Shown one piece after another: positions 20,532 to 62,385 of a stretch of 64,000 bases of DNA. Below the pieces are notes generated by a model. It had not been told where the DNA came from, did not search any database, and was given only the letters and a program-made list of their open reading frames with translations. The number at the start of each line of letters is the position of its first letter. Positions within the stretch are counted from its first letter, which is position 1. The translations under genes were made by a program, and so were the position numbers. This stretch comes from Microgenomates group bacterium (GTDB lineage Bacteria > Patescibacteriota > Microgenomatia > UBA12405): positions 278,994 to 342,993 of the forward strand of contig JBAQNJ010000001.1 of assembly GCA_049303675.1 (NCBI GenBank), given 5' to 3'.

Positions 20532-20603
20532 CCGGTGATAGCAAAGCGGTTATGCGTCGGTCTGTAAAACCGATCTAGGTAGGTTCAACTCCTACTCACC
20601 GGA
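20532..20603 (+). tRNA. tRNA-Tyr(GUA), class-I-like (short variable loop, C1:G72)
   Basis: Manual cloverleaf: acceptor CCGGTGA/TCACCGG, anticodon stem TCGGT/ACCGA loop CTGTAAA (anticodon GTA), V-loop TCTAG, T-arm GTAGG-TTCAACT-CCTAC, discriminator A. Confidence 0.7.
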
Positions 20604-20611
20604 CATAATTT

Positions 20612-20663
20612 TAGCGACGGTCTGTAACCCCGCCGCTGCGGGGCAACTCCTACTCACCGGACT
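20612..20663 (+). repeat. Partial duplicate of tRNA-Tyr 3' part (anticodon loop to acceptor 3') with same GC hairpin replacing V-loop/T-stem
   Basis: gcgacggtctgtaa[ccccgccgctgcgggg]caactcctactcaccgga vs tRNA gcgtcggtctgtaaaaccgatctaggtaggttcaactcctactcaccgga. Confidence 0.7.
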
Positions 20664-21297
20664 CATTTTTTAATCTCTCTAATATTTTTGGTGTTATCGG
20701 CCATAAAGTAGCCGCAGTATAATCCGCGTATTCTTCTGGTGTCATTTCTGATAAAGTATTTTTTTTCCCTTCAGGAATAAAAAACCAATCAAAATAATAA
20801 CCAAGTTTTGTAATTCGTAATTCATTTGCCGCTGTACCTCTTGTTCTGACACCTTCCGAAATTACTTCACCATTAGGTATAGCCAAGGCAATTCCATAAC
20901 CAAAATAAATAGTTCGATTTTCAGTACCATTCAATTTGTCTAACAGTTTTTGAGTATTAGTTACGTCCGACTCGTATCGATTGTCTACTCCCAGTATCAT
21001 TTTGTCGTTGCCTGTTAATTCTTTTTTGGATTCTGTCCCTGGCCAGCCACCAAGTGCTTCAAATTCAATTCCTCTGTCAAAAGAAATCGACATCAGACCA
21101 GATGCTCTGCAGTAAGCCCTAGCCTTCAATTCACTATCACCTACAAAGCTACCCGAATTCTCCTCAACTTCAATATCTATCCCCAGTTCTTTAGGGTTTA
21201 CAAATCTATACAGCTTATCAAGTCCCAACTTTCGACAAGAATATAAAAATGGTTCTACCTTTGATCTATTTGTCGTCGCAATTAGTAGGTCTTTCAT
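20650..21297 (-). CDS. Ham1/RdgB-family non-canonical purine NTP pyrophosphatase (divergent)
   Basis: Manual alignment to RdgB: LLIATTNRSKVEP~VVLATGNVGKVRE; EENSGSF..ELKAR; LGGWPGTES; GYYFDWFFIPEGKKNTLSEMTPEE~[24 protein letters not shown]. Confidence 0.55.
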   Translation of the reverse strand: MKDLLIATTNRSKVEPFLYSCRKLGLDKLYRFVNPKELGIDIEVEENSGSFVGDSELKARAYCRASGLMSISFDRGIEFEALGGWPGTESKKELTGNDKMILGVDNRYESDVTNTQKLLDKLNGTENRTIYFGYGIALAIPNGEVISEGVRTRGTAANELRITKLGYYFDWFFIPEGKKNTLSEMTPEEYADYTAATLWPITPKILERLKNESGE

Positions 21298-21308
21298 ACA
21301 CGCTTTAA

Positions 21309-21818
21309 CTACCTTATTTTACACGAATATTTTATTAGATCCTTCGTGATTTTATTTACATCGACCTTTTTTCCATCAACTTTGAAAAAAGCCAAATATC
21401 TAAGCCCAGCTCCCGGTGCTTCACTCATCATTATTTTTAAAACTATTTCTCCAATTTCTTTAGTACTAGTTACTTTCTTCTGACTCAGAATCAACTTTTC
21501 TTCAACCTCATCGAATATTTTCTTTGATGTAATTCCTGAATCTCCTCTATCTATTTTCTTTTGTCCGACGACTACATGGTAAATGGATGAGTATAATTTT
21601 GCTCCAACATATTTAACTCTTTTTCCAGATCTTTTAACGACTGTAATATGTCCTAAATCAATCTTCTCGTGAGTTGTAAACAAAAAATCACATTTTAGAC
21701 ACTTCCTTCTTCTCCATATTTGAATTCCTTTATTTGTTGGCCTTGAGTTCGTCACCTCAATTTGTTCACTTCCACAATTCGGACAAAACATACCCATATA
21801 TTGACATATAATAGCCAT
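21309..21818 (-). CDS. nrdR: Transcriptional repressor NrdR (zinc ribbon + ATP-cone)
   Basis: MFCPNCGSEQIEVTNSR...RRRKCLKCDFLFTTHEKID...VVKRSGKRV; true start probably internal Met (MFCPNCG, about 21791). Confidence 0.8.
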   Translation of the reverse strand: MAIICQYMGMFCPNCGSEQIEVTNSRPTNKGIQIWRRRKCLKCDFLFTTHEKIDLGHITVVKRSGKRVKYVGAKLYSSIYHVVVGQKKIDRGDSGITSKKIFDEVEEKLILSQKKVTSTKEIGEIVLKIMMSEAPGAGLRYLAFFKVDGKKVDVNKITKDLIKYSCKIR

Positions 21819-21855
21819 TTTATCAATTTATAATTTACTTTTGAACTAAAATAAG

Positions 21856-22296
21856 TTGTCATATCTGTCAACAATATGTTCTATCAAATCGATCCTGTTT
21901 GACATTAAATATAAATATCAAATGACAAGGGAAAATATAATCAACATCACAATAAGTGAGCCTTCCCAAATATGTATTATTGTTAGGCAAGCCAACAAAT
22001 TCATCGCTTCAAAACCTTATCTGGGTGTTCATACCATTGGAGCCAGTGCAAATGGTGTAATTTCGTACCCTGTCGGCAACATCGAAGGTTCGTATCTAAA
22101 ACCAACTGTCAAACCAGTCACAATTAGTCCGCCGTTTAGAATTTCCTTATCACAAGATACCAATATTGTTGTTAGTTTTCAGGCGAAAGGCGAATTCTCA
22201 CCAGAACCATCACAAGACTGGATGCTCGACCGACTTAAGAACCAATTTACCAGTGTCATAGCCGACTCACATCCAAAATTAAGACAGTCCACTTAA
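21856..22296 (+). CDS. Hypothetical protein
   Basis: 146 aa ORF, no recognisable motif. Confidence 0.3.
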   Translation: MSYLSTICSIKSILFDIKYKYQMTRENIINITISEPSQICIIVRQANKFIASKPYLGVHTIGASANGVISYPVGNIEGSYLKPTVKPVTISPPFRISLSQDTNIVVSFQAKGEFSPEPSQDWMLDRLKNQFTSVIADSHPKLRQST

Positions 22297-22315
22297 ATTA
22301 TCAGTTAAATTTAAT

Positions 22316-22618
22316 ATGAAAAATATCGTCGTCGACAAGCCAAGTGAAATAAGTCAAATTGCCTATTTCCTTAATCATTCAGATATCTTTAGCTCCGTTA
22401 ATATCAGTTCAATTAGTGCCAATCAAAATTATCTCAAATGGTCCGCTCCTTCAACAGATTATCCTTGCATTTATAATTCATATTATCTATTTTCACCATT
22501 CAAAATAGTATTGTATCCACATCCTTTTGTTGTTCCAACTGATGAAAGTGGCGAAAGTAAAATTATTCTTGACCAAGTAAAAACAAAATTAATGGAAGCC
22601 ATTCTCAGGATAATCTGA
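22316..22618 (+). CDS. Hypothetical protein
   Basis: 100 aa ORF downstream, same strand. Confidence 0.3.
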   Translation: MKNIVVDKPSEISQIAYFLNHSDIFSSVNISSISANQNYLKWSAPSTDYPCIYNSYYLFSPFKIVLYPHPFVVPTDESGESKIILDQVKTKLMEAILRII

Positions 22619-22635
22619 TTTTGCTATAATCATTT

Positions 22636-23685
22636 GTGCAGATTTCTACCTTAATCCTCGAAAATTTTCGCTCTTACACACGACGTGAACTAAAACTTGA
22701 TTCAAAAACTAATTTAATTTTGGGACACAATGGTGCCGGCAAGACTAATATTTTAGAAGCTATTTATTTCCTGTCCTGTGGTAAAAGTTTTCGTAGTAGT
22801 TCCCTATCGCAATTAATCAATTGGAACAGTACTTACACTAGTGTTCAGGGTCAACTTGATGACCATACTCTCGAGGCTCAGCTAATCAAGAATGCTGCCA
22901 AAATGTCCCTTAGTCGTCAGTTCAAACTCGACCAAGTGATCAAAACTCGTCCCAAATATCTCGGCACTATGAAATGTGTTGTTTTTGAGCCAGAGGATAT
23001 TCGACTAGTTAATGGTTCACCCACCCGTCGTCGCGATTATCTCGATAGTGTTTTTGCTACCACCGAGTGGCGTTATGCTGGTGCCCTGTCCCAATTTCAC
23101 CGAGCTCTTAAGCATCGCAATGAATTGCTAGATCAAATCAGGGACGGCAAAAACCAAAAATCAGAGTTATTTTACTGGGATCAGTCTCTTATTAAAAACT
23201 CAGAAATAATTCACGATTTCCGGCAAAAATTTATACAATCAGTCAATCAATTTTTTCAGAACCATTCTTTCACCGAAATAAAAACTTTGTTTTTAACCTA
23301 CCACCCCTCAGTTCTGACTCAAGAAAAATTAGAACTCAATTATTTCCACGACCTCAATTCCGGATTTACCCAAGCAGGAATTCATCGTGACGATTTTACC
23401 TTCAATAATTCAATTTTCTCCACTGAAGACAAGAATTTAGCTTATTGGGGGAGTCGTGGTCAACAGAGACTAGCAGTCCTAGCTCTCAGACTTGCTCAAA
23501 TAAATTATCTAGAGGAAACCTATTCTCAAAAGCCAATTTTACTTCTCGACGATATTTTTTCCGAGCTCGATCCCGAGCATCGCCAGTTAGTTGTCAACAT
23601 CTGTCAAACGTACCAAACCATTTTTACCTCCGCCGAGGACAATATTTCTCACTTTTTACCTCAAGCTAACCAAATTAGTCTCTAA
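22636..23685 (+). CDS. recF: DNA replication and repair protein RecF
   Basis: NFRSYTRREL...ILGHNGAGKTNILEAIYFLSCGKSFR Walker A; C-terminal LLLDDIFSELD signature. Confidence 0.85.
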   Translation: MQISTLILENFRSYTRRELKLDSKTNLILGHNGAGKTNILEAIYFLSCGKSFRSSSLSQLINWNSTYTSVQGQLDDHTLEAQLIKNAAKMSLSRQFKLDQVIKTRPKYLGTMKCVVFEPEDIRLVNGSPTRRRDYLDSVFATTEWRYAGALSQFHRALKHRNELLDQIRDGKNQKSELFYWDQSLIKNSEIIHDFRQKFIQSVNQFFQNHSFTEIKTLFLTYHPSVLTQEKLELNYFHDLNSGFTQAGIHRDDFTFNNSIFSTEDKNLAYWGSRGQQRLAVLALRLAQINYLEETYSQKPILLLDDIFSELDPEHRQLVVNICQTYQTIFTSAEDNISHFLPQANQISL

Positions 23686-23710
23686 AGATATTGTATAATC
23701 TGACTAAATT

Positions 23711-23929
23711 ATGAAAATATCACCAATTATGGATTCAGATGAAGCCACTGCCCAGCAAAGGCTGAAAGAAATATATCGACGTCAAAGAAATGACCTTTCT
23801 ACTGAAACTAGTCTTGAGGATTTACGAACCGAACTAACAATTACCACCAGATTATTGGAACTAAAATGTCGAATTCAATTGAGCAACATGGAAAATATTG
23901 TTGCCGCTTCGGTCGAGGCACAGATGTAA
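23711..23929 (+). CDS. Hypothetical small protein
   Basis: 72 aa ORF between recF and rRNA. Confidence 0.3.
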   Translation: MKISPIMDSDEATAQQRLKEIYRRQRNDLSTETSLEDLRTELTITTRLLELKCRIQLSNMENIVAASVEAQM

Positions 23930-24119
23930 AACTATTTACCCCCTCCACAAACGCAATATTTGTTCTATAATACCTACACTGTCTTTATCAAGACAGGTTT
24001 TTATTGTACATTAACATTCAACCACTCTATTTTTTTAAAGCCACGGCTGTTAGTATCAGAGAGATGACACCGATAATTCGGTATTTCTTTTTTGAAAATC
24101 ATCCCGATCATTCGGGATT

Positions 24120-25617
24120 TGTACTAAGAGTTTGATCGTGGCTCAGGGTAAACGCTGGCGATGTGCCTAAGACATGCAAGTCGAACGGGATTCATTATCT
24201 TCACAAAGTTTCTAATTTTAGTGATTTTGTGAAGATAGTGAGTTTAGTGGCGAACGGGTGAGTAATGAGTACGAACGTACTCTCAAGCGGAACATAGCCC
24301 ACCGAAAGGTGGAGTAATTTTCCATAGTCTCGCAAGAGTAAAGATGCAAATCACTTGAGAAGCGGCGTACTTGCCACCAGCTAGTTGGTAGGGTAACGGC
24401 CTACCAAGGCTATAACGGCTAACGGCTCTTAGCGGAGAGTCCGTCACAATGGGACTGAGACACGGCCCATACTTCTACGGAAGGCAGCAGTTAGGAATCT
24501 TGCGCAATGGACGAAAGTCTGACGCAGCGACATCGCGTGAAGGATGAAGGCCCTCGGGTCGTAAACTTCTTTTATTGTGCCATGAAGGCATTTTGAATCA
24601 ACAGCTACTAACTACGTGCCAGCAGTCGCGGTAATACGTAGGCTGTAAGCGTTACCCGGTTTTATTGGGCGTAAAGCGTCTGTAGGTGGTTTTGTAAGTC
24701 TTGTTTCAAAGACCCCAGCTTAACTGGGGGCAGGGGCAGGATACTGCAAGACTAGAGTGATATCGGGGTTACTGGAATTTTTAGTGTAGGGGTAAAATCC
24801 GTGGATACTAAAAAGAACACCAAGCGCGAAGGCGGGTAACCAGGTATTTACTGACACTCAGAGACGAAAGCTAGGGTAGCCAATCAGATTAGAGACCTGA
24901 GTAGTCCTAGCTGTAAACTATGTATGTTAATTCTCTGTAATTTATTATGGGGGATGTAAGCTAACGCGTTAAACATACCGCCTGGGGAGTATAGCCGCAA
25001 GGCCGAAACTCAAACGAATTGGCGGGGAGGCGCACAACCAGTGGAGCATGTGGTTCAATTCGATACGAAGCGATGAACCTTACCTGGGTTTGAAATGTAT
25101 CTGCAAACCCCCAGAAACGGGGGAATCCTTAGAGGGTGATACACAGCTGTTGCATGGCTGTCGTCAGCTCGTGACGTGAGTTGTTCTCTTAAGTGAGGTA
25201 ACGAGCGCAACCCCCATCCGGTGTTATTGTGTCACCGGAGACTGCCTAGCATTATTTTGTTAGGAGGAAGGAGGGGACGACGTCAAGTCAGCATGATGCT
25301 TATGTCCAGGGCTACACACATCCTACAATGAGGAAGACAATGGGTCGCGAAACCGCGAGGTGGAGCCAATCCCACAAACTTCCTCTCAGTTGGGATTGCA
25401 GGCTGAAACTCGCCTGCATGAACCCGGAATTGGTAGTAATCGCGCATCAGCAGCGCGCGGTGAATACGTTCTCGCCTCTTGCACACACTGCCCGTCAAAT
25501 CAGCAAAGTTGAGGGCACCTGAAGCTTGGCCTTTGGCCGAATCAAGGTGAATTCAGCGATGAGGGTTAAGTCGTAACAAGGTATCTGTACTGGAAGGTGC
25601 AGATGGATCACCTCCTT
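24120..25617 (+). rRNA. rrs: 16S ribosomal RNA
   Basis: AGAGTTTGATCGTGGCTCAG at 24127; GTGCCAGCAGTCGCGGTAATAC; 3' end GGATCACCTCCTT at 25605-25617. Confidence 0.95.
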
Positions 25618-25721
25618 TGAGGATTTATCCGTATTCCAATTTATTGGATATCGGATCATGAATCGAACTCTTTCTGGTACTAACATTTTTGGCTTTAAAT
25701 AAAATAGTGGTTGAATAAAAT

Positions 25722-25752
25722 AAAAATCCCCCAGTAATGGGGGATTTTTTTT
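25722..25752 (+). terminator. Intrinsic terminator immediately after 16S
   Basis: aaaaatcccccagtaatgggggattttttttg hairpin + T-run about 105 nt after 16S 3' end; no 23S or tRNA follows. Confidence 0.7.
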
Positions 25753-25762
25753 GCAATAAATA

Positions 25763-25981
25763 TTATTTGGTTTTAGGTTTAAGATACTGAATTGATATTC
25801 CACCTGGAGTCAATTCGTCTTTCTTTTCCACTCTCTGCCATCCCGCACTACTAAATATCAAAGCCACTGCTGGTTCTTCAACTGGAGATACATAAAAAAC
25901 ATCCCTATCCTTTTCACTTAGAGCTAACCTCGCTCTTGAAACTAATGAATCTTCGATCGCTTGTGCTATTTGTTCTGTCAT
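25763..25981 (-). CDS. Hypothetical small protein
   Basis: 72 aa ORF convergent on 16S terminator. Confidence 0.3.
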   Translation of the reverse strand: MTEQIAQAIEDSLVSRARLALSEKDRDVFYVSPVEEPAVALIFSSAGWQRVEKKDELTPGGISIQYLKPKTK

Positions 25982-26049
25982 ATTGAACTTATTCTCTCCC
26001 TCTCTCTTCTATAAGTCAAATTTTCCGATATTTTTAGTACAATCAACCA

Positions 26050-26573
26050 TGAATCTAATTTTTATCTATGGCCCTCCGGCCACTGGCAAACTTACAGTTG
26101 CTAAAGAATTGTCAATATTGACCAATTATCCTGTCTTTCATAATCACTTAACTTATGATTTAGCATTTTCATTGTTTAAGGGTTATAAGTTTGGAAAATT
26201 AATTGAACAAATTCGGCTTGATGTTTTTCAACACGCCATTAATCAAAAGTTGTCAGGCTTAATTTTTACAGTCGCCTATGGATATGGCTCTGACGATCAA
26301 TTCGTAAAATCAGTTATAAAATTAATCGAAAAATCAGGTAATAAAATTAATTTTGTCCAGCTAAAATGTTCTCGAGAAGAATTACATGATCGTGTCAATC
26401 AGGACTCTCGTCAACAATTTGGCAAGGTCAAAGATGTCCAAAATTTAGACGAATTATTAAACACCAATGACTACTTTACTCCTATTTCATTCGTCAAAAA
26501 TCTAATAATTGACAACACATCTCTCGACCCAAAAACTGTCGCCGAAAAAATTATGAATGAGTTTGCAATATAA
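26050..26573 (+). CDS. P-loop NTPase/kinase (AAA_33-like)
   Basis: MNLIFIYGPPATGKLTVAKEL Walker A at probable start (ORF track begins 25983). Confidence 0.6.
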
Positions 26574-26588
26574 TCCGACTAACCTTCT

Positions 26589-27311
26589 ATGCCTCCATTT
26601 GTTACCAAACTAAAAATCGAGCCGGACAAACTTCCCCAACACATTGCCATTATTATGGACGGCAACCGTCGTTGGGCCAAACAAAACAATTTTGACCCCA
26701 GCAAAGGCCACGAGGCAGGCGCTGCCAATCTCCAAAAAATTGTCGAATATTGTCGCGATATTGGCGTCAAACATTTGACAGTCTATGCCCTATCTACCGA
26801 AAACTGGCGACTCCGTTCCCCCCTCGAAGTCAGGGGATTATTTAATTTATTGATCAAGGTAGTCAAGACCAAGGCCGAGGAATATCAGCGTTCCGGCATC
26901 AAGTTTTTTGTCCTCGGCAATTTTCAAGCTTTCCCTCACAAGGTCAAAGAAGCAATCAAAAAAATATTATCTCTGGCCATAGTTAAGGAAAAAATACAGT
27001 TCAATATCGCTCTCAATTACGGCGGTCGTGATGAAATCGTTCATGCTCTGAAGAAAATTATTCAGGACAAAGTTCCTGAAAACAAAATAGACGAAAATTT
27101 AATTAGCAGCTATCTCTATACCAAAAATCAGCCCGATCCTGATCTCATTATTCGTCCGGGCGGTGAATTTAGACTTTCCAATTTTCTTATTTGGCAAATG
27201 TCCTATGCCGAACTATTTTTCACCAATATTCTCTGGCCAGATTTTACCCCCCGTGAACTCGAAAAAGCCATCTACTGGTACCAGCAGCGCGACCGCCGCA
27301 TGGGAAAATAA
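26589..27311 (+). CDS. uppS: Undecaprenyl pyrophosphate synthase
   Basis: HIAIIMDGNRRWAK...ALSTENW...FLIWQ motifs. Confidence 0.9.
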   Translation: MPPFVTKLKIEPDKLPQHIAIIMDGNRRWAKQNNFDPSKGHEAGAANLQKIVEYCRDIGVKHLTVYALSTENWRLRSPLEVRGLFNLLIKVVKTKAEEYQRSGIKFFVLGNFQAFPHKVKEAIKKILSLAIVKEKIQFNIALNYGGRDEIVHALKKIIQDKVPENKIDENLISSYLYTKNQPDPDLIIRPGGEFRLSNFLIWQMSYAELFFTNILWPDFTPRELEKAIYWYQQRDRRMGK

Positions 27312-27313
27312 AT

Positions 27314-28249: not shown

Positions 28250-28254
28250 TTTAT

Positions 28255-28817: not shown

Positions 28818-28824
28818 ACTTTCA

Positions 28825-29106: not shown

Positions 29107-29107
29107 A

Positions 29108-29521: not shown

Positions 29522-29525
29522 CTAA

Positions 29526-39246: not shown

Positions 39247-39678
39247 AGGAGGAGATGCTCGGTATTGAGCCGAGGTCCAAAGTGGACTATAAAAAACGTC
39301 TACAAGCTTAATTTACTTTATCCTACACTTTCAACAACTAAAGTAAACGAAAAGTGTTGAAATGTCGATTATTGAGGGCATTACCCCTCTCTTAAATCCA
39401 CGATCTAATCGAGAAGATCGGGACAGCATTCTAGTTTAATTTACACTAGCTAGTCTTCTCTAGAAAAGGGGACTAACTAATGGATGATTCTGTTTAGGCA
39501 AGAGCCCAAACAGGAGCCTTAGAAGCTAGAGCGCCTTTTACAGCGTTTGCAACTTTGGTTAAATCAACACCAAAAGTATTTTTGGCATGTTTGTTTTTGA
39601 CCCTGTTTAACGACTCAATGGATCAAAGTCGGCTTGCGGTTTTTTAAGGTACTCACCTTGTCGATGCAATACATCTCC
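39247..39678 (-). ncRNA. ssrA: tmRNA (ssrA) candidate
   Basis: Minus strand: 5' GGAGATG-TATTGCATCGACAAGG (cf. GGAUUCGACGGG), internal tag ORF GCA AAC GCT ... TAA = ANAVKGALASKAPVWALA*, 3' GGAC-CTCGG-CTCAATA-CCGAG-CATCTCC (T-arm + acceptor strand complementary to 5' GGAGATG) then terminator; smpB 2.7 kb away. Confidence 0.55.
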
Positions 39679-46455: not shown

Positions 46456-46589
46456 AAAATCTTGCATTCTATTTTTAGTTTCGCTATTATTCTTAGAGTG
46501 TTTAGAAGACCCTTAGGGGTTGACAACCGAGTCCGCCAAATGGTCCACGGTGCCCACTAAAACACGCCTTATCAATTAAAAGGAAAAAT

Positions 46590-47690
46590 ATGAATTATCC
46601 TCAATTTTCGTCCGAATCTGTCTGTGAAGGTCACCCCGACAAAGTCTGTGACCAAATTAGTGATGCTATCTTAGACGCTGCCTATACCCTCGACCCTATG
46701 GCTCGGGTCGCTATCGAGACTTTGGCTACGGTCAACAAATTAGTTTTAGCCGGAGAAGTTACTATTAATGGTACTCTCGATTATGCCGCTATTGCCCGCC
46801 AAAAGATCGCCGAGCTCGATTTTCTCGATTCAGTTTTAGATTTTACCGACAAATGCGACATCGAAATTGCTGTCCACACACAGTCACCCGATATTGCTCA
46901 GGGCGTCAATGCTGGTGGAGCCGGTGATCAGGGGATGATGTTTGGTTATGCTTGTCGCGAGACACCCGAACTAATGCCCCTTCCCATTTCCATGGCTCAC
47001 AAATTATGCCGTCAAATGGACGAATTACAGCGCATTCATCGTTGGATGCGCCCCGATGGCAAGTCTCAGGTTACCGTTCGTTATGATGGTCAGACTCCGG
47101 TAGCCATCGAGCGAGTTGTCTTGGCCAAGCCCATGAATTACGACCTCGCCCCTGCTGATTATTCTCACTTTTTCTATCAAAATGTCATTGTTCCAGTCTT
47201 AGCTGAATACAAGTTTGAAATCAGTGAAGACAAAATGATTCTCAATGGTACCGGTAAATGGACCATTGGTGGCCCCTCCGCCGATACTGGCGTTACTGGC
47301 CGCAAAATTGTCGTTGATACTTACGGTGGTATGGGTCGTATTGGTGGTGGTTGCTTTTCCGGCAAGGATACTACCAAGGTCGATCGCAGTGCCGCCTACG
47401 CCGCTCGCTATATTGCCAAAAATATTGTGGCTGCAGGTCTCGCCGATCGCTGCGAGGTTCAATTAGCCTATGCTATTGGTCAAGTCCTGCCTGTTGGTCA
47501 ATCTATTGAGACTTTTGGCACTGCCAAGTCAGAATTAAAGGTAATCGAAGATTTTGCATGGAAATTACTCGAATTATCGGTCGCTGGTATCAACAGTGGT
47601 CTCAATCTCCGCGTGCCAATGTATGCCAAAACCGCCCGCTATGGCCACTTTGGCCATCCCGAGTATCCATGGGAGAAGATAAAAGGCTAA
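46590..47690 (+). CDS. metK: S-adenosylmethionine synthetase
   Basis: FSSESVCEGHPDKVCDQISDAILDA; GGGCFSGKDTTKVDRSAAYAARYIAKN. Confidence 0.9.
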   Translation: MNYPQFSSESVCEGHPDKVCDQISDAILDAAYTLDPMARVAIETLATVNKLVLAGEVTINGTLDYAAIARQKIAELDFLDSVLDFTDKCDIEIAVHTQSPDIAQGVNAGGAGDQGMMFGYACRETPELMPLPISMAHKLCRQMDELQRIHRWMRPDGKSQVTVRYDGQTPVAIERVVLAKPMNYDLAPADYSHFFYQNVIVPVLAEYKFEISEDKMILNGTGKWTIGGPSADTGVTGRKIVVDTYGGMGRIGGGCFSGKDTTKVDRSAAYAARYIAKNIVAAGLADRCEVQLAYAIGQVLPVGQSIETFGTAKSELKVIEDFAWKLLELSVAGINSGLNLRVPMYAKTARYGHFGHPEYPWEKIKG

Positions 47691-52884: not shown

Positions 52885-52905
52885 AATTGGGTATATTATA
52901 AATTA

Positions 52906-54136: not shown

Positions 54137-54159
54137 TATGTATTATATATAATTCGAAG

Positions 54160-54194
54160 TCCCCCTTGTTAAAGGGGGATTTAGGTGGATTAGG
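54160..54194. repeat. Hairpin repeat family copy 8 (short form)
   Basis: tcccccttgttaaagggggatttaggtggattagg between divergent PHP and lemA. Confidence 0.75.
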
Positions 54195-54208
54195 TGTTAT
54201 TATAAAGT

Positions 54209-54769: not shown

Positions 54770-54772
54770 TTC

Positions 54773-55615: not shown

Positions 55616-55727
55616 CGCTAGTGTCATTCCCGCGCCGTGTCAGTCTGTAGCTTTAGCGTAGGATGATAGGTGGGAATCTATTAAATTTATTTGTCCTATT
55701 CATAAATCTTAAATCGTATATCTTAAA

Positions 55728-56816
55728 TCAAAAATTTATCTCCCGTGTCGTCTCATCCACATAGCTAAAATTAATCGGTATATAGTTAGTTATTTTTTTT
55801 AATTTATTTAGGTATTCTTCACCCATATTTTCCGGCCACTCAATACAGGCAACTAGCTCTGAGCTTGTCGAAGGGAATTGTTCCAAAAATTTTATTTCCT
55901 CAAATTCATATTTATTTCCCAATCTATACAAATCAAAATGTAAAAATTTCTTGCACTGATAACTGTTCACTGATAACTGTTCACTGATTAAATATTCATT
56001 ATAAATTACAAACGTCGGGCTAGTTATTTTTTCCTTTACCCCGAGTAGTTGTCCTATCTTTCGGGAAAATACAGTCTTTCCACAACCTAGGTCTCCGCTC
56101 AATCCAAACACTAGAGGTTTTCTCTCCCTTGTTAAAGGGAGAAGCGGCGTAGCCGAGAGGGATTTGTTCAACAAAAATTCAGCAATTTTCTCCGTTTCCT
56201 TTTCCGATTTAGAAATTAGTGTTTGGGATTTCCCCACTATCAAGTCTCCCCGTCTGAGGATTTTTATCTCCGGTTCAGTGGCGTCAATTACTGTCGATGG
56301 TTTGTTCCGTGGTAATTTACCACTGTCCACCATCATATCGATCATCATCAATTTTTTCTGGGACAGAGTTTTTACAAAGCTTGCCAGTGAATAGTGGGGA
56401 GTCCGTCCCGACAGATTCGCTGACGTCGCCGTCACTGGCCCTCCCACCGCCTTCACCAGATCCATTATCCATTGGTTATCCGGTATTCGTATTCCCAATG
56501 TCCCATTTTCCGCCTCTATACCCTTGGCCACCTTATGTTTGCCCTCCGACACAATCGTAAAAGGTCCGGGTAGCAAGTTTGCATAAATATTTTCTGCATT
56601 TTCACTCAGTTTTACAAAATCTTGTGCCATTTTTTTATCTGCTACAGCTATCGATATCGCCTTCCCCGTCCATCTGTTTTTAAATGCGAGAAGTTTATCT
56701 GTTGCGCTCTGGCTTCTCGGATCTACCGCCAAAATGTACACCGTATCACTCGGGAATATTACTAGCCCACCATCTTTTATTATTCTGGCCGCCTTTTCAA
56801 TATCCTCGACTTTCAT
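55728..56816 (-). CDS. Fused TsaC/Sua5 (YrdC domain) and TsaE (P-loop) protein
   Basis: N: GGLVIFPSDTVYILAVDP...; C: SEKETEKIAEFLL...GDLGCGKTVFSRKIG...SPTFVIYNEY...HFDLYRL; carries hairpin copy 9 and 14-mer repeat in-frame in TsaE part. Confidence 0.75.
   Translation of the reverse strand: MKVEDIEKAARIIKDGGLVIFPSDTVYILAVDPRSQSATDKLLAFKNRWTGKAISIAVADKKMAQDFVKLSENAENIYANLLPGPFTIVSEGKHKVAKGIEAENGTLGIRIPDNQWIMDLVKAVGGPVTATSANLSGRTPHYSLASFVKTLSQKKLMMIDMMVDSGKLPRNKPSTVIDATEPEIKILRRGDLIVGKSQTLISKSEKETEKIAEFLLNKSLSATPLLPLTRERKPLVFGLSGDLGCGKTVFSRKIGQLLGVKEKITSPTFVIYNEYLISEQLSVNSYQCKKFLHFDLYRLGNKYEFEEIKFLEQFPSTSSELVACIEWPENMGEEYLNKLKKITNYIPINFSYVDETTREINF
55954..55989. repeat. 14-mer tandem repeat (aactgttcactgat)x2.5
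   Basis: cactgataactgttcactgataactgttcactgatt encodes ISEQLSVNSYQ. Confidence 0.8.
56121..56165. repeat. Hairpin repeat family copy 9 (long form), in-frame in TsaE domain
   Basis: tctctcccttgttaaagggagaagcggcgtagccgagagggattt encodes (minus) SLSATPLLPLTRERK. Confidence 0.8.
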
Positions 56817-56832
56817 GGGGATATTCTATCAC

Positions 56833-57246
56833 TTAAGGGTTAGATTTTTGAGCTTCTTCCAATAACACCTTCGACACCCTCTCAAGTCCCCACATCTGAA
56901 TTTGATAAAGACTTACATCTGTTGTTACCGCGCCTGTTAAAAACCCTCTGTCAAATTCTTCCTTTGCTACTTCTGAGCAATGAAGGGCAAAACCAGCTAG
57001 AGCCAAATCGGGATTTAATTTATTTACTTGATCATAAATTGTCAGCGCTACTAGATCATCGTTTCCACTTTGATATTCGAGTTTCATACCAGTTTCTTGT
57101 ACTCTCAGGCTATTCACCAGATCTAAAGTAATTTCTCTAGCTGTCTCCAAACCAATTTTTTCTGGAGTAGCTTTTTCAAATTTTTCTCTCAAACCATCAT
57201 CTGTTAAAAGCCTTTGATTTAACTTGCTACTTCCTTCGTTAAACAT
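56833..57246 (-). CDS. Hypothetical protein
   Basis: 137 aa ORF. Confidence 0.35.
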   Translation of the reverse strand: MFNEGSSKLNQRLLTDDGLREKFEKATPEKIGLETAREITLDLVNSLRVQETGMKLEYQSGNDDLVALTIYDQVNKLNPDLALAGFALHCSEVAKEEFDRGFLTGAVTTDVSLYQIQMWGLERVSKVLLEEAQKSNP

Positions 57247-57305
57247 TTTTTTATATTAAATTTTTAATCTGCCCTCATTATATTTCATTTCTCTCCCATG
57301 TCAAA

Positions 57306-57725
57306 ATGTTAAACTCTCTTATGTCCAAGTATGCAATACCACTTTTCATTTGTCTTATTCTTACAAGTCTTATCTATAGTCAGAAAAATAATTTTTCCTC
57401 GGGCAACCGCTATTACTCGACTTTGCAACAGTGGTATTCGTTTGCCCAAACAGGGGACTGGGTAAGTGCTGATCGTCTCGCCACTCGTCTTGATCCAGCC
57501 GACATTGCTCACTATCGTTCACTTTATCATCCCGACGAATTAAAAAAAGATATAAATACCCTGATGTTGGCGCCCCAAAAATCCGTCGAGGATTGGATAG
57601 AATTAGCCCGTATTCAGGCAATCTTAGGCAAAGGCAGTGAGTCACTCGAATCTTTGTCCCGGGCTCATTCTCTCGACCTCCTGCGCGACGACATTAGTCG
57701 TCTCTATTACCAGACCAAAAAATAA
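57306..57725 (+). CDS. Hypothetical secreted protein
   Basis: 139 aa, N-terminal hydrophobic segment. Confidence 0.35.
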   Translation: MLNSLMSKYAIPLFICLILTSLIYSQKNNFSSGNRYYSTLQQWYSFAQTGDWVSADRLATRLDPADIAHYRSLYHPDELKKDINTLMLAPQKSVEDWIELARIQAILGKGSESLESLSRAHSLDLLRDDISRLYYQTKK

Positions 57726-57771
57726 CTCCCAAAAGTTTTTACTTTTGTCTTTTGTTTTTAGGATTTAGAAT

Positions 57772-58488
57772 TTATTTATCTTTCTCTTCTTTCTTTTTCT
57801 CCTCCGCCTTCTTGGCATCATCTGCCGCCTTTTCTTCTTCTGTCTTTTGGTTCATAGCTGGGGCGACCACTACTTCAGTCGTCTCTTCTACTACTGGTTC
57901 GACTTCTACCTTAGGTTCTTCGACTTTGACCACTACTTGTTCTGGATCATTTTTAATTTCGATTTTACTTCGATCAACAATTAGGTCAGCTACCGTAATT
58001 TCTGAATCTAGGGTCACTAGTTTTGCCAAATCAACCTCAATTTTTTCTGGTAAATCAGTTGGTAGTGCTTCGACCTCAATTTCGTTCACTGCTTCCACCA
58101 GTACATTTCCTAGTTTTACTGCCTCCGATTCGCCCACAAATTCAATCGGGACGAAGGTGGTAATCTTTTCTTTCAGGTTCACTTTATAACAGTCAATATG
58201 AGTCATTAGTCCGGTGACAGGGTGATATTGGGGGTTACGGAACAATATTGGCAATGCTTTTCCATCTAGTTCTAGTTCTACTAGTCCTGATTCTCCCGCA
58301 TGGGCAAAAATTGCGGCCATTTCTTTTTCATTTATTTGAATTGAAACAGGTTCAAATCCGTGTCCATAGACACTTGAGGGCATTAATCCCTGTTTGCGTA
58401 GTTGGCGGACTTTTTTACCAGTAATTGTTCGGACACTAGCGGACAGTTTTGATTTTTCTTTGGTCATATTATTCTTGGAAGCCTTCAC
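57772..58488 (-). CDS. rplY: 50S ribosomal protein L25/general stress protein Ctc
   Basis: RTITGKKVRQLRKQGLMPSSVYGHG...; Lys/Glu-rich C-terminal extension. Confidence 0.8.
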   Translation of the reverse strand: MKASKNNMTKEKSKLSASVRTITGKKVRQLRKQGLMPSSVYGHGFEPVSIQINEKEMAAIFAHAGESGLVELELDGKALPILFRNPQYHPVTGLMTHIDCYKVNLKEKITTFVPIEFVGESEAVKLGNVLVEAVNEIEVEALPTDLPEKIEVDLAKLVTLDSEITVADLIVDRSKIEIKNDPEQVVVKVEEPKVEVEPVVEETTEVVVAPAMNQKTEEEKAADDAKKAEEKKKEEKDK

Positions 58489-58579
58489 CCACTAACTCGG
58501 GGCTAACTCAACCATAGCAAGGACTGTGTCACGCCATAGCTTTGCGTCGGCGGACTGAGGCTATTCTAGCACAAATTAT

Positions 58580-58780
58580 TTATATTGTTATAGTAAAGAT
58601 TCCCCGTCCATATGTTTTTCTTGTATCTGTTTCTTCTTCTTTTTGAGGAGGAGTTACGTATCCCTCAGGCATTTCAACTCTTGCAGTTACTTGTGTTGAT
58701 ACAGGTGTAAAACCATCTTTCTTCACGATAGCTTTCCTCTCAGCAACTTTATTTGAAAATTCTTTCCATAATATCTTCAT
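58580..58780 (-). CDS. Hypothetical small protein
   Basis: 66 aa ORF. Confidence 0.25.
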   Translation of the reverse strand: MKILWKEFSNKVAERKAIVKKDGFTPVSTQVTARVEMPEGYVTPPQKEEETDTRKTYGRGIFTITI

Positions 58781-58805
58781 GTCCTATATTATATCATTTA
58801 TTTTT

Positions 58806-59426
58806 TTAATTACAATTCAGTGCCTTCTTGTATCCCGCCGCTATTGCCTCAGCTTCAGTGCAAAACCATTGATCTCCCAAGTCAGTTTCAATATCGGTAT
58901 TGGTATAACCCTTGCATTTTGGTAGCACAAATATTTTTTCATTTTCTCGATTATTACCCTTAATTAGGCACTTGGGATTATTCAGATTAGTCGTCTCTAC
59001 GCACTTTCCATAAATCCCTAACTTATTTTTTTCTGCCACATTATCAATTTCACTTATTTGCTTATTGTCACCCTGACTAACATATCTTACCCAGCCACTT
59101 CTGGCCATTTCTTCGTTGAGCATTTTATTGTCAATCCAAGCAGTTGTCAGTAGTCGTCCAAACTTATCATTTGTTTTCCCAACTATCTTTATCTTTTTAT
59201 TTAGAGTCAGCTTCTCCATTTCATTTTTTGCTTCTTCGAATCCACACAATCCTTTCTCTGGCGCGTCAATATTTGCGAGGCGTATTTCTTGGTTATTATC
59301 AACCACCAGTGTGTCTCCATCGATAACTCTTTGGACTGTATACAGCTTTTCCTTATTTATATTTTTTCCAATTCCTACTCCCACACCAATACATACCAAT
59401 ATTGCCAACACAACTTTCCAATTCAT
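58806..59426 (-). CDS. Thermonuclease (SNase-like) family protein, secreted
   Basis: YTVQRVIDGDTLVV...IRLANIDAPEK; N-terminal TM. Confidence 0.75.
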   Translation of the reverse strand: MNWKVVLAILVCIGVGVGIGKNINKEKLYTVQRVIDGDTLVVDNNQEIRLANIDAPEKGLCGFEEAKNEMEKLTLNKKIKIVGKTNDKFGRLLTTAWIDNKMLNEEMARSGWVRYVSQGDNKQISEIDNVAEKNKLGIYGKCVETTNLNNPKCLIKGNNRENEKIFVLPKCKGYTNTDIETDLGDQWFCTEAEAIAAGYKKALNCN

Positions 59427-59429
59427 ACT

Positions 59430-59693
59430 CTAGTACACCTCCTCATGTTTGCCAATTTTTAATAAATATATAGTACCTTTTTCAATTGACAACAAAATTC
59501 TGATTGATTTATTAACTGAAATTGAATACCATTTTGTTCCTGACAACTTATGCAGCCTGAGGCTTGGATGATCTACATCATGTTCGAGAAGATCTACTAT
59601 TTTTCTAATTTTAACTACATACTTTCGATTGTGTCGAGTTAAATTTCGAAGCTGCTGATCAAATTTGTTTCCGAATACAATTTTGTACACCAA
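59430..59693 (-). CDS. Type II toxin, RelE/ParE superfamily
   Basis: 87 aa; ...HPSLRLHKLSGTKWYSISVNKSIRIL... Confidence 0.55.
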   Translation of the reverse strand: MVYKIVFGNKFDQQLRNLTRHNRKYVVKIRKIVDLLEHDVDHPSLRLHKLSGTKWYSISVNKSIRILLSIEKGTIYLLKIGKHEEVY

Positions 59694-59699
59694 CTAACA

Positions 59700-59936
59700 C
59701 TATAGACTCTTGAAATAGTTGTCAATATCTTTCTTGTTTTTTAATACAAAGCCCTTACCAGCCTTCCTCTCAGCTTTTGCTTCTGACAATAATTGATCAA
59801 GCTCTGACTCCATCAAAGTTTTTCGTAGTGATGATCTAACCAGATCACTAAACGAGGCATAATAGCCCTTTTCTATTTCTTTTTCAGCCAAAGTCTTTAA
59901 TGCCTTCGGTAGCGATATATTAATTGTACTAATCAT
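59700..59936 (-). CDS. Type II antitoxin (RHH/ParD-like)
   Basis: 78 aa immediately upstream of toxin; INISLPKALKTLAEKEIEKGYYASFSDLVR. Confidence 0.5.
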   Translation of the reverse strand: MISTINISLPKALKTLAEKEIEKGYYASFSDLVRSSLRKTLMESELDQLLSEAKAERKAGKGFVLKNKKDIDNYFKSL

Positions 59937-59954
59937 GTATGAATATTAGCATAA

Positions 59955-59982
59955 TTGACACATGAAGACAATGTGTTACAAT
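59955..59982 (+). promoter_or_regulatory. Sigma70-like promoter TTGACA-16-TGTTACAAT
   Basis: ttgaca(59955-60) 16-nt spacer tgt tacaat(59977-82); drives small transcript ending at terminator 60077-60105. Confidence 0.55.
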
Positions 59983-59988
59983 ATCCCA

Positions 59989-60060
59989 ATGAAATTAAAC
60001 ATCTCTACAATCTGGTGGCGAGAATCTAGCCCAAGTGCGGGAGATATTAATTTGTCATAA
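59989..60060 (+). other. Leaderless 23-codon small ORF / small RNA candidate
   Basis: ATG at predicted TSS; MKLNISTIWWRESSPSAGDINLS*; bounded by promoter and terminator. Confidence 0.35.
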
Positions 60061-60076
60061 GTTCTAGTTTTTCCAA

Positions 60077-60105
60077 AAATATCAATCCCGCAACTGCGGG
60101 ATTTT
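60077..60105 (+). terminator. Intrinsic terminator
   Basis: aatcccgcaactgcgggatttttttt. Confidence 0.7.
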
Positions 60106-60184
60106 TTTTCGTTTAAATAGGTCTAAATTTCAAACGAAGTGAAAAAATTTTGCCTATTTACACAATCCGCCTCTGGCGGAGTTT

Positions 60185-60257
60185 GGGTGGATAGTTCAGT
60201 TGGTTAGAATGCTGGTCCCCAAAACCGGCGACAATGGTTCAAGTCCATTTCCACCCA
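60185..60257 (+). tRNA. tRNA-Trp(CCA)
   Basis: Acceptor GGGTGGA/TCCACCC, anticodon stem CTGGT/ACCGG, loop CCCCAAA (anticodon CCA; C at 33), T-arm AATGG-TTCAAGT-CCATT, discriminator A. Confidence 0.7.
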
Positions 60258-60259
60258 CT

Positions 60260-61222
60260 ATGATTAATTATAATCTGACAGTAGATAGGATAAAAAACAG
60301 CCTGCAAAACGGGAGATGTTTCTATGGTGAAACCTATGATTCTCATGGCATGACAATTGACTCTCTAAAGTACTATTTTTTCTTATCTCTACTACATCTG
60401 ATATTAGCTAAATCAAATATCAAAACTGAGTCGACGGTGATAATCGCCGATATTGCCTCGGGTATCAACAAATCTAGTCAAAAAATAAATTGCGATATAG
60501 ATGAGGTGGGGAAAAATCGTCTAGATTATTGTGAAAAAATAAAAAAATATTTTAATTTACCTATCAAGTTTGTTTTAATGAGCAACTTTTTTGCCACCAA
60601 TCCCATTGCAAAACTAGTTGAACAATTCGAAAATGTTGGTCATAGCAACCCCAAAGTGACTGAACTTTTAGCAAAAACAGTACTCCAAAATAAAATTAAA
60701 CAAGAAAATGATTCGGGCTTTCGTTATGGTTATGAAGAAATTGCTACCGGATCATTTTTTAATATCAAAATTGGCCCACCGCGAGAAAAATATTACGACC
60801 AAGCCGCCAAAATTATTTGCAAAAAATTAAAACTGAATCAATTAAAAAGTATTTATCTGACACCCACGTTTCCTTTGGGTCAAGATTTTTCCTATTTCCT
60901 AACTCACCCCGAAATAGAAGAATTTGGACTTACACCATACAAAGCCGGTAGTAACCAAATGCAGGATTTCAGAATAACTATAAATACAACCACGATAGAA
61001 AAAGTTGAGCAACTAATCAACGATACTTACATCACTACTAATCCAAATTTACCAAATCCAATATTTGATTTACTGTTTATTGCCAATATGGCAGAAAAGT
61101 TAAAAAACAAAGAATATGAGTTTCCAGTTTACAAAAATAATATTTATATAAATCCAAAAAAACTAAAGAGTTTTGCTTTCCAGAAAATAACTAGGTTATT
61201 GATTGATCTAAAAAATCTATGA
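60260..61222 (+). CDS. Hypothetical protein
   Basis: ORF track 60200..61222 overlaps tRNA; first ATG after tRNA at 60260. Confidence 0.4.
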   Translation: MINYNLTVDRIKNSLQNGRCFYGETYDSHGMTIDSLKYYFFLSLLHLILAKSNIKTESTVIIADIASGINKSSQKINCDIDEVGKNRLDYCEKIKKYFNLPIKFVLMSNFFATNPIAKLVEQFENVGHSNPKVTELLAKTVLQNKIKQENDSGFRYGYEEIATGSFFNIKIGPPREKYYDQAAKIICKKLKLNQLKSIYLTPTFPLGQDFSYFLTHPEIEEFGLTPYKAGSNQMQDFRITINTTTIEKVEQLINDTYITTNPNLPNPIFDLLFIANMAEKLKNKEYEFPVYKNNIYINPKKLKSFAFQKITRLLIDLKNL

Positions 61223-62385
61223 ATAGCCCACAGGCAATTGCCCAATCACATCAAGAATATCAATCTAAATTAACTATCAAGAAAAAAATTGGGGATTATT
61301 ACTTGGATCAAACCACCAAAAATGGTCTCTCTAGCCTTGATAAAATTAAGGCCTATTTACCTCTTGATCTACAGCCACTTCATTTTCGACGCAGCATCGC
61401 TATCGCCCATCTTGATCTTGAACCAATCATCGAAAAAATTGCCAAGAATCAGGAGTTTGTTATTGTTTCCGGTCTCAATCCGTCTTCTCCCTTACACCTC
61501 GGTCATAAGGCCCTGTTTGATTTACTCCTAAGTTTACAAGGACTAGGAGCCAGAGTATTTATTCCTCTGACCAACGACGAGTCGCTAGTTGATGGTAAGG
61601 TTAGTTCTTTGGCTCAGAGTCTAAACATTGCCAAAACCTCAATTCTCCCCGACATTATCAATTTTGGATTTGATCCGGACAAAACCCATATTTTTATTGA
61701 CTCCGAATATCCCCAGCTCTACAACTTCGCTATGTATCTCAGCCAACATATTTCCTTTGGACAACTTCGTCAAGTCTTTGGTGACGATTCACTGACTACT
61801 CCTGGCCAAATTTTTTATCGTGGAGTCGTTCAAATGGCGCAGATCCTGTTACCCCAACTCCCTGAATTTGGTGGTCCAAAAGTGACTTTGATTCCAGTTG
61901 GTATTGACCAGCACCCATATATATTATTGGCTCGTGATGTTGCCAAAAAAATTGGTATGATTCCACCGTCTGAGTTGGTTATTAGATTCTTGCCTAGCTT
62001 ACTAGGGCCAGAAGATAAAATGTCGGCATCAAAACCAAACACTGCTATTTACCTTAGTGACACTCCAGAGGCAATTCACAAAAAAATTAGTCGAGCCTAT
62101 ACCGGTGCTGTTTCAGCCCTTGATGTATATCAAGAACGGGGTGGTATTCCCGAAATATGCTCAGTTTTTACTCTTCTAAATTTTCATCATCCCGACGGTG
62201 TATTTGTCGAAAATATTAAACAAAGTTATTTGCATGGTCTTATTACCATGTCTGAGTTGAAAGAACTTACAACAGCTTTTATTACCGAATTAGTCACCCG
62301 CCACCAGCAAAAAAGCCCGCCTACCTCTGATCAAATCAATAAGTACATTTTAACTACACCATTAAAATCACTTTTAACCCTATGA
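61219..62385 (+). CDS. trpS: Tryptophan--tRNA ligase, archaeal/eukaryotic type
   Basis: Class I HIGH variant SPLHLGH and KMSAS (EDKMSASKP) as in archaeal/eukaryal TrpRS; adjacent tRNA-Trp. Confidence 0.7.
   Translation: MNSPQAIAQSHQEYQSKLTIKKKIGDYYLDQTTKNGLSSLDKIKAYLPLDLQPLHFRRSIAIAHLDLEPIIEKIAKNQEFVIVSGLNPSSPLHLGHKALFDLLLSLQGLGARVFIPLTNDESLVDGKVSSLAQSLNIAKTSILPDIINFGFDPDKTHIFIDSEYPQLYNFAMYLSQHISFGQLRQVFGDDSLTTPGQIFYRGVVQMAQILLPQLPEFGGPKVTLIPVGIDQHPYILLARDVAKKIGMIPPSELVIRFLPSLLGPEDKMSASKPNTAIYLSDTPEAIHKKISRAYTGAVSALDVYQERGGIPEICSVFTLLNFHHPDGVFVENIKQSYLHGLITMSELKELTTAFITELVTRHQQKSPPTSDQINKYILTTPLKSLLTL

Follow-up and report, generated by a model that had tools for sequence, protein, structure and literature searches.

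A tRNA-Trp and synthetase operon of archaeal type, preceded by a predicted leader-peptide attenuator, in a Microgenomates bacterium

Results

Genes of the window and the tRNA-Trp(A73)-ORF1-TrpRS-A1 operon

We analysed a 64,000-nt stretch of contig JBAQNJ010000001.1 from a Microgenomates group bacterium (positions 278,994 to 342,993, hereafter the window), near whose end a tRNA-Trp gene is followed by four open reading frames (ORFs) on the same strand. These encode a protein of the family called ORF1 by Mukai et al., a tryptophanyl-tRNA synthetase of archaeal/eukaryal type (TrpRS-A1), a second synthetase-like protein (ORF299) and a TrpRS of bacterial type (Table 1). A tRNA-Tyr and a triose-phosphate isomerase (TIM) of archaeal type are encoded in the same window. 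We consider it likely that the window belongs to a candidate phyla radiation (CPR) bacterium with three lateral or lineage-typical archaeal-type components already known from CPR, namely the tRNA-Tyr, the TIM and the Trp operon, the last of which lies under a predicted attenuator.

Such an operon, in which tRNA-Trp(A73), ORF1 and TrpRS-A1 are followed by a bacterial-type TrpRS, was described in CPR Microgenomates by Mukai, Reynolds, Crnkovic and Soll (2017, Life 7:8, PMC5370408). Their type example was Ca. Beckwithbacteria RBG_13_42_9, ORF1 was an unknown protein, the operon proteins lacked Trp, 12 instances were available and the function of the operon was called unclear (PMC5370408). By its sequence, the operon in the window is a clear member of this family: gene order, the G1:C72/A73 tRNA-Trp and the bacterial-type TrpRS downstream are shared, the proteins are devoid of Trp, the 4-Cys cluster is missing (A1, not A2), and ORF1 and TrpRS-A1 are 47% (E = 1e-83) and 59% (E = 8e-167) identical, respectively, to those of RBG_13_42_9 (ORF1 protein P0012, locus L165). 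Unlike the published operon, that of the window has a tRNA-Trp with C33 and an ORF1 that begins 2 nt after the tRNA, and a predicted attenuator with tandem Trp codons (WW) lies 5' of the tRNA, whereas the 2017 paper has a trp repressor gene in some loci and does not mention a leader, a terminator or attenuation for the operon (PMC5370408). The operon also appears to be extended by a second synthetase paralog without signature motifs, which precedes a bacterial-type TrpRS fused to a YbaK-like N-terminal domain, where the paper says only "fused with small proteins".

The family now counts 193 ORF1 proteins at E<=1e-3 and 80 metagenome loci, across which the order tRNA-ORF1-TrpRS-A1-(ORF299)-(YbaK domain)-bacterial TrpRS recurs, and in nearly all loci with enough upstream sequence a G1:C72/A73 tRNA-Trp lies 0-250 nt 5' of ORF1. 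Avoidance of Trp is marked, with no Trp in the 1494 residues of the four operon proteins against 1.4% in the ORFs of the window (P ~ 4e-10), and it is family-wide: ORF1 proteins contain 4 Trp in 15,403 residues and 12 of 12 TrpRS-A1 homologs contain none. Five loci (L040, L042, L048, L050 and L051) contain ORF1 in two or three copies, along with TrpRS-A and a TrpRS-like gene that is more divergent (22-28% identity), and these probably correspond to the TrpRS-A2 / TrpRS-A-like clusters of the 2017 paper.

Table 1. Features of the window treated in the text; positions are counted from its first nucleotide.
Feature	Position	Strand	Evidence and remarks
tRNA-Tyr(GUA), class I	20532..20603	+	ARAGORN (20532-20604), Rfam RF00005 59.9 bits, sequence read by eye
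Archaeal-type triose-phosphate isomerase, 219 aa	42832..43491	-	NCBIfam PRK04302 178.5 bits, above cut-off of 132
Promoter-like site TTGACA-16-TACAAT with TG	59955..59982	+	Consensus scan, 11/12 matches
Putative leader peptide ORF, 23 codons, MKLNISTIWWRESSPSAGDINLS	59989..60060	+	WW codons 60013-60018; TAA 60058-60060
Predicted antiterminator segment UGCGGGAG in last leader codons, 15-22 nt before stop	60036..60043	+	Complementary to terminator 5' arm
Predicted intrinsic terminator AATCCCGCAACTGCGGGATT then T8	60084..60111	+	Terminator scan
tRNA-Trp(CCA), G1:C72, A73, C33	60185..60257	+	ARAGORN (60185-60258), Rfam 63.1 bits
ORF1 of Mukai et al., 320 aa, no Trp	60260..61222	+	Start 2 nt past tRNA; stop overlaps TrpRS-A1 start (ATGA)
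TrpRS-A1, archaeal/eukaryal-type tryptophanyl-tRNA synthetase, 388 aa	61219..62385	+	HLGH, KMSAS, one Cys, no Trp
ORF299, second synthetase-like ORF	62437..63510; listed ORF 62611-63510 (299 aa)	+	Predicted class-Ic fold, no HIGH/KMSKS, no Trp
Bacterial-type TrpRS, 5' part, with N-terminal YbaK/ProX-like domain (PF04073)	63528..64000, past window end	+	TIGR00233, KMSKS, PF04073 + PF00579

Two types of TrpRS in one operon

The acceptor stem of the tRNA-Trp (GGGTGGA/TCCACCC) gives a G1:C72 first pair followed by A73, which together are the archaeal/eukaryal TrpRS identity set. Across 26 homologs, 98% of the cells of the cloverleaf are paired and changes on both sides occur in 16 of 21 pairs. The synthetase corresponds to this type of tRNA: the best NCBIfam models for TrpRS-A1 are the PRK12285 set (TIGR00233 scores 211, above its cut-off of 176.75), and among PDB sequences it comes closest to 3jxe of P. 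horikoshii (2e-48) and to eukaryotic TrpRS (~1e-41), with bacterial-type enzymes reaching only 1e-11 to 6e-13. Since it has a single Cys, we assign it to the A1 subtype of the archaeal/eukaryal clade, without the C-x22-C-x6-C-x2-C cluster of A2. A first-pass annotation of the window had already proposed a TrpRS with KMSAS of this type, and models and PDB matches bear this out; it had also placed the gene next to tRNA-Trp, and the two do share an operon but are not directly adjacent, ORF1 (60260-61222) lying between them.

The same annotation went on to suggest that the lineage uses a non-bacterial identity for both Tyr and Trp. The archaeal/eukaryal-type components are there, but a switch of Trp identity does not follow, as the operon itself ends with a bacterial-type TrpRS (487 aa at full length, L001 12310-13773; TIGR00233 269 bits; best full-length models PRK12283/PRK12556). 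Additionally, a G73 tRNA-Trp stands beside the A73 tRNA-Trp in three relatives (L010, L019 and L028). Because of this bacterial-type TrpRS and these G73 tRNAs, we read Trp identity as dual and not replaced, with the archaeal-type pair as an added module.

The alternative is that bacterial Tyr and Trp identity were both replaced and that the A73/C33 tRNA-Trp with TrpRS-A1 is the only Trp-decoding system. It would agree with the single tRNA-Trp found in ~82 kb of this genome and with the loci of the nearest relatives (L003-L009), which show the A73/C33 tRNA only; the lack of a G73 tRNA-Trp in the window and its flanks also weighs against dual identity. Nevertheless, the operon closes with a genuine TrpRS of bacterial type, L010, from the subclade that shares C33, carries a G73/U33 tRNA-Trp between TrpRS-A1 and the bacterial-type enzyme, 5' of the latter, and both Trp pairs were reported in Beckwithbacteria by Mukai et al. 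(PMC5370408). We therefore regard full replacement as unlikely and retain dual identity.

Two further observations concern tRNA genes of relatives. In L047, L067 and L071 the tRNA-Trp 5' of ORF1 combines A1:U72, a bacterial-looking first pair, with A73, and it may be a bacterial tRNA-Trp converted to the archaeal discriminator. In L059 a group I intron (1992-2177, Rfam 79.6 bits) adjoins a tRNA gene ~2 kb 5' of that relative's Trp operon.

C33 and the junction between tRNA-Trp and ORF1

The anticodon stem of the tRNA-Trp (CTGGT/ACCGG) encloses the 7-nt loop CCCCAAA, and position 33 is therefore C, as the first-pass annotation had read it; U33 is otherwise almost invariant in elongator tRNAs (PMC5041475). 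C33 occurs only in the window and in L003-L010, all other members of the family having U33. Since it is common to four distinct tRNA sequences (window, L003-6, L007-9 and L010), whose ORF1 proteins are only 53-70% identical, C33 is genuine, fixed in one subclade, and not a sequence error.

In this subclade the start of ORF1 touches the tRNA, with the junction ACTATG in the window and L003 and ACCATG in L008 and L010, where the A of the encoded CCA is the A of the ORF1 ATG. At the window's junction (60257-60262) the start codon lies 2 nt past the discriminator, the two genes being 75-250 nt apart in other clades. Given this contact, processing the tRNA at its 3' end would either yield an ORF1 mRNA that is leaderless or destroy the ORF1 start codon.

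Predicted synthetase folds of ORF1 and ORF299

Neither ORF1 nor ORF299 matched any Pfam or NCBIfam synthetase model. A confident AlphaFold2 model was obtained for ORF1 from 46 homologs (predicted local distance difference test, pLDDT, 85.8; predicted template modelling score, pTM, 0.88); it shows Rossmann-type parallel strands and, at the C-terminus, a helical domain, and its best Foldseek matches are full-length archaeal/eukaryal TyrRS (E = 1.5e-10, template modelling score up to 0.67). HIGH and KMSKS are missing, with TIDS for the former and KAGSN for the latter, and in a weak profile alignment (hhalign) the invariant TPYKAGSN of ORF1 falls on the KMSSS loop. ORF1 is thus predicted to be a complete class-Ic, TyrRS-like synthetase fold that lacks the signature motifs. 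In the SWISS-MODEL analysis of Mukai et al. the Rossmann fold was missing (PMC5370408), whereas the AlphaFold2 model has the complete Rossmann-fold class-Ic architecture and, as a prediction, corrects that claim. ORF1 was also considered as the missing TyrRS of this genome and rejected, as it always accompanies tRNA-Trp and TrpRS-A1, has no HIGH/KMSKS and is present in a relative with a normal bacterial tRNA-Tyr.

ORF299 is likewise predicted to have a class-Ic synthetase (Rossmann) fold without HIGH/KMSKS. As a paralog of ORF1 by sequence it was rejected, BLASTP and hhalign having returned nothing, and what links the two is the predicted fold only. Its 5' region (62422-62611) contains a Shine-Dalgarno sequence (AAAGGAGG), a GTG at 62437, MNFLTRG, an in-frame TAG (62458-62460) and FGETPSQRRF...SPLQVLDQGAGDQRIIKHL. 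The upstream coding part is homologous to the N-termini of relatives, where Ser or Val stands at the TAG position, and an independent Logan contig (L002) has the TAG as well.

The most likely role of both proteins is that of non-catalytic or neofunctionalised partner subunits of the synthetase gene 3' of each, because the ORF1 stop overlaps the TrpRS-A1 start (ATGA) and because co-evolution bearing on such a partnership was reported in 2017 (Mukai et al., PMC5370408). Two points count against this role: both folds are predictions, and the in-frame TAG near the 5' end of ORF299 may either have arisen recently as a nonsense mutation, with translation re-initiating downstream, or be read through. 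Related cases are the Leishmania double-length TyrRS pseudo-dimer (3p0h-j) and the cyclodipeptide synthases, in which a class-Ic fold has lost its ATP-binding motifs and stands beside, or is fused to, an active synthetase; unlike these, ORF1 and ORF299 are separate genes with invariant motifs of their own, known here from sequence and predicted folds.

Cyclodipeptide synthases are class-Ic-derived enzymes without ATP motifs that take aminoacyl-tRNAs as substrates. By analogy, the A73 (C33) tRNA-Trp and TrpRS-A1 might be an orthogonal pair that feeds a non-ribosomal reaction, in which ORF1 and/or ORF299 would use Trp-tRNA in the manner of a cyclodipeptide synthase and C33 would keep the tRNA from elongation, a scheme that we find doubtful. 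Just as speculative is a module, made of tRNA-Trp(A73, C33), TrpRS-A1, ORF1 and possibly ORF299, for orthogonal aminoacylation induced by Trp starvation. The two motif-less class-Ic paralogs would then add an activity that ordinary TrpRS lacks, either as part of a heterodimeric synthetase with altered substrate or inhibitor sensitivity or as an extra-ribosomal Trp-tRNA enzyme, and C33 and the tRNA-ORF1 overlap would mark a non-standard elongator. As the role of ORF1 and ORF299 we keep that of partner subunits.

A tRNA-Tyr with the archaeal/eukaryal identity set

Read by eye, the acceptor stem of the tRNA-Tyr (CCGGTGA/TCACCGG) gives C1:G72 and an A73 discriminator, with no encoded CCA, and the variable loop has 5 nt (TCTAG), that is, no variable arm (V-arm). 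ARAGORN and Rfam agree with this reading, and the class-I tRNA-Tyr bearing C1:G72 and a 5-nt variable loop of the first-pass annotation stands. C1:G72, A73 and the lack of a V-arm make up the archaeal/eukaryal TyrRS identity set. A C1-G72 tRNA-Tyr together with an archaeal/eukaryal-type TyrRS has been reported for several CPR groups, namely Roizman-, Davies-, Shapiro-, Wolfe- and Andersenbacteria (Mukai et al. 2017, PMC5370408). The tRNA-Tyr of the window resembles these in its C1:G72 and A73, in a bacterium of the same radiation whose nearest named relatives are Shapirobacteria, and differs from most of them, which keep a long V-arm (PMC5370408), in being of the rarer V-arm-less form.

From the tRNA and the published Shapirobacteria TyrRS we infer charging of the archaeal/eukaryal type. 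Against it stands that the TyrRS of this genome was not found in the DNA searched: neither the window nor the 8-10 kb flanking it on either side (L001, L163) encodes one, and when the window and the retrieved loci were queried by tblastn with the TyrRS of M. jannaschii, human and B. stearothermophilus, the hits were all to TrpRS genes. In a profile search of contigs with an alignment of human, yeast and M. jannaschii TyrRS, the matches listed included DPANN archaea and three other CPR genomes (L094, L097 and L124), and JBAQFH010000001.1, the contig on which the window can be placed (see below), was absent among them.

The missing TyrRS also leaves room for a bacterial-type TyrRS with relaxed requirements charging this tRNA in place of an archaeal-type enzyme, as the human mitochondrial TyrRS accepts a V-arm-less tRNA with either 1:72 pair (PMC5370408). 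We hold this to be rather improbable, because the tRNA-Tyr has the full archaeal set and Mukai et al. list Shapirobacteria among the groups with both the archaeal/eukaryal-type TyrRS and C1-G72 tRNA-Tyr; archaeal/eukaryal-type charging is preferred. Whatever enzyme serves it, the Tyr trait is independent of the Trp trait, since a relative that carries ORF1 and TrpRS-A1 (L053) has an ordinary class II G1:C72 tRNA-Tyr.

A degenerate copy of the 3' part of the tRNA-Tyr (GCGACGGTCTGTAAC...CAACTCCTACTCACCGGAC) lies 14 nt 3' of the gene, at 20618-20664. It has a GC hairpin (CCCCGC/GCGGGG) in place of the T-arm and a T-run ~28 nt past the hairpin, was not called as a tRNA by ARAGORN, and may be what is left of a duplication or an integration site.

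A predicted leader-peptide attenuator 5' of the tRNA-Trp gene

Upstream of the tRNA-Trp gene, a promoter-like site is followed by a short ORF with tandem Trp codons and by an intrinsic terminator (Table 1), an arrangement that we interpret as a Trp-sensing leader-peptide attenuator, a known mechanism in what appears to be a new setting. Since the end of the -10 box and the ATG of the leader ORF are 6 nt apart, the mRNA of the leader is probably leaderless. The duplex between UGCGGGAG and the terminator 5' arm has an energy of -11.0 kcal/mol, where shuffled sequences average -4.7 (p = 0.008), and the minimum-free-energy fold of 60025-60112 pairs the same segment with 60084-60092 (z = -2.6).

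Comparison with relatives points in the same direction. An M..WW(W)..stop ORF precedes the tRNA-Trp in 10 of 38 distinct relatives, with none on the reverse complement and 0.37 +/- 0.58 in shuffles. In nine of these 10 the leader is followed by a hairpin and a T-run that stops 4-25 nt short of the tRNA, too close for the tRNA to have a promoter of its own. The complementarity of leader segment, 5' arm and 3' arm is kept in four unrelated sequence versions (UGCGGGA/UCCCGCA; GGGGUGA/UCACCCC; GGAGGGUU/AACCCUCC; and, less strongly, that of L007/L010), 7 of 9 reaching p <= 0.03. T-box and other known leader RNAs were rejected, since neither the window leader nor 14 related loci without a WW ORF gave an Rfam match to a T-box or other leader RNA.

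Several points weigh against an attenuator. A WW leader is missing from about 28 of the 38 related loci, among them the Beckwithbacteria reference; the antiterminator of L007/L010 does not reach significance in a simple duplex test; the gap of ~75-80 nt between terminator and tRNA in the window could hold a second promoter; and both attenuator and promoter are predictions. The short WW ORF and the hairpins might even be chance, the hairpin serving to terminate upstream convergent or neighbouring genes, and indeed the hairpin (60084-60103) is symmetric and scores as a minus-strand terminator too, while the WW ORF is absent from most loci of the family. We consider chance very unlikely given the excess of WW ORFs over expectation, their strand specificity and fixed distance from the tRNA, and the three-way complementarity preserved in four different sequence versions, to which the Trp-free operon downstream adds a complementary signature. 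An attenuator remains our interpretation.

Host of the window and the archaeal-type TIM

The window contains a complete bacterial 16S rRNA gene (24120-25618) and a transfer-messenger RNA (tmRNA) gene (39247-39678), both found with Rfam, and ARAGORN called two tRNAs in it, the tRNA-Tyr and the tRNA-Trp. The TrpRS-A1 protein is encoded identically on NCBI contig JBAQFH010000001.1 (998,417 bp, assembly GCA_049287145.1), of which the window corresponds to ~118.5-182.5 kb, reversed, and whose proteins are named "Microgenomates group bacterium"; for ORF1 and TIM, the nearest homologs that carry a name come from Ca. Shapirobacteria. On account of the bacterial 16S rRNA and tmRNA, the Microgenomates proteins and the Shapirobacteria homologs, the host is a CPR/Patescibacteria bacterium (Microgenomates, near Ca. 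Shapirobacteria), and neither an archaeon nor a chimera. Although cross-contamination between CPR and DPANN bins is known, we reject as most improbable that the archaeal-type genes are contaminants or were joined chimerically from DPANN archaeal DNA during metagenome assembly, because the 998-kb contig that holds all parts also encodes bacterial 16S, tmRNA, NrdR and penicillin-binding proteins, the junction of ORF1, TrpRS-A1 and ORF299 is found again on an independent Logan contig, and dozens of relatives have the same arrangement adjoining a bacterial-type TrpRS.

The TIM has the catalytic motifs NFK, NHSE and YEPP (by eye), with catalytic Lys, His and Glu, in the short form of ~220 aa. It resembles archaeal TIM in this length, in its PRK04302 score and in its PDB sequence matches at E<=1e-5, which are 2h6r, 1hg3, 5csr and 1w0m only, all of them archaeal TIMs; it differs in being encoded in a bacterium and in being common to many Shapirobacteria. 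The first-pass annotation was right about an archaeal-type protein of 219 aa but had made it part of a non-bacterial aminoacylation picture, to which TIM is unrelated. Because its top homologs (53-78% identical) are, where named, all from Ca. Shapirobacteria, it is a normal enzyme of that lineage and not peculiar to this genome.

Other features of the window are recorded here. The 16S rRNA gene has no insertions and no adjoining 23S rRNA gene, with protein ORFs resuming from 25983. GC skew is negative across the window (1-64000), most 4-kb bins lying at -0.1 to -0.36, with -0.04 near the 16S gene, and is reminiscent of the disparity in strand composition described from another Microgenomates genome (PMC7143001). 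A 362-aa protein (55728-56816, minus strand) fuses Sua5/YrdC (PF01300) and TsaE (PF02367), two components of the t6A pathway, with TsaD nearby in L001. A SAM-I/IV riboswitch match (46493-46599, plus strand) scores 41.1 bits, exactly the gathering threshold, and lies directly 5' of a 366-aa ORF (46590-47690).

Discussion

The archaeal-type components of this window were already described for CPR in 2017; what is added here is the predicted attenuator, the pair of class-Ic paralogs and the subclade with C33. From the sequence features and their conservation we infer regulation, charging specificity and partner role as follows. Transcription would start from the promoter directly 5' of the 23-codon leader ORF with its tandem Trp codons. 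With charged tRNA-Trp plentiful, the ribosome would reach the stop codon and cover UGCGGGAG, the terminator would form and transcription would end before the tRNA gene. With charged tRNA-Trp scarce, the ribosome would stall at the WW codons, UGCGGGAG would pair with the terminator 5' arm, and read-through would extend into tRNA-Trp(A73), ORF1, TrpRS-A1, ORF299 and the YbaK-TrpRS. Since the four operon proteins are free of Trp, they could be made under Trp scarcity. TrpRS-A1 would then charge its own A73 tRNA by archaeal identity rules, the bacterial-type TrpRS would serve a G73 tRNA-Trp, if the genome has one, and ORF1 and ORF299 would each be a partner of the synthetase encoded next downstream.

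Attenuators of this kind have precedents. The auxiliary trpRS1 of S. coelicolor is reportedly under attenuator-type control, and a classical attenuator before a second trpS, that of trpS2 in Streptomyces avermitilis, has been predicted (PMC1262725). Like these two and like E. coli trpL and pheM-pheST, the leader of the window has a short ORF with tandem Trp codons, a T-run and an antiterminator that overlaps the terminator 5' arm, and as in classical attenuators it is a (second) TrpRS gene that would be controlled by the supply of charged tRNA-Trp. In contrast to them, it lies in a CPR host and has no Rfam match, the first regulated gene would be a tRNA gene, the regulated enzyme would be an archaeal-type TrpRS with its own orthogonal tRNA, and the leader mRNA is seemingly leaderless in the window's subclade.

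The presence of archaeal tRNA identity rules inside bacteria is already published, and to this the window adds one more member, on a near-complete genome. The additions give a testable model of a Trp-free emergency module, induced by stalling at Trp codons, that would supply a tRNA, an archaeal-type synthetase and two synthetase-like partners. If true, this would be an example of a tRNA gene under leader-peptide attenuation and of a natural orthogonal pair of tRNA and synthetase under the control of the charging state of its own amino acid, with relevance to the evolution of aminoacyl-tRNA synthetases, to the physiology of auxotrophic CPR bacteria and to the engineering of orthogonal pairs.

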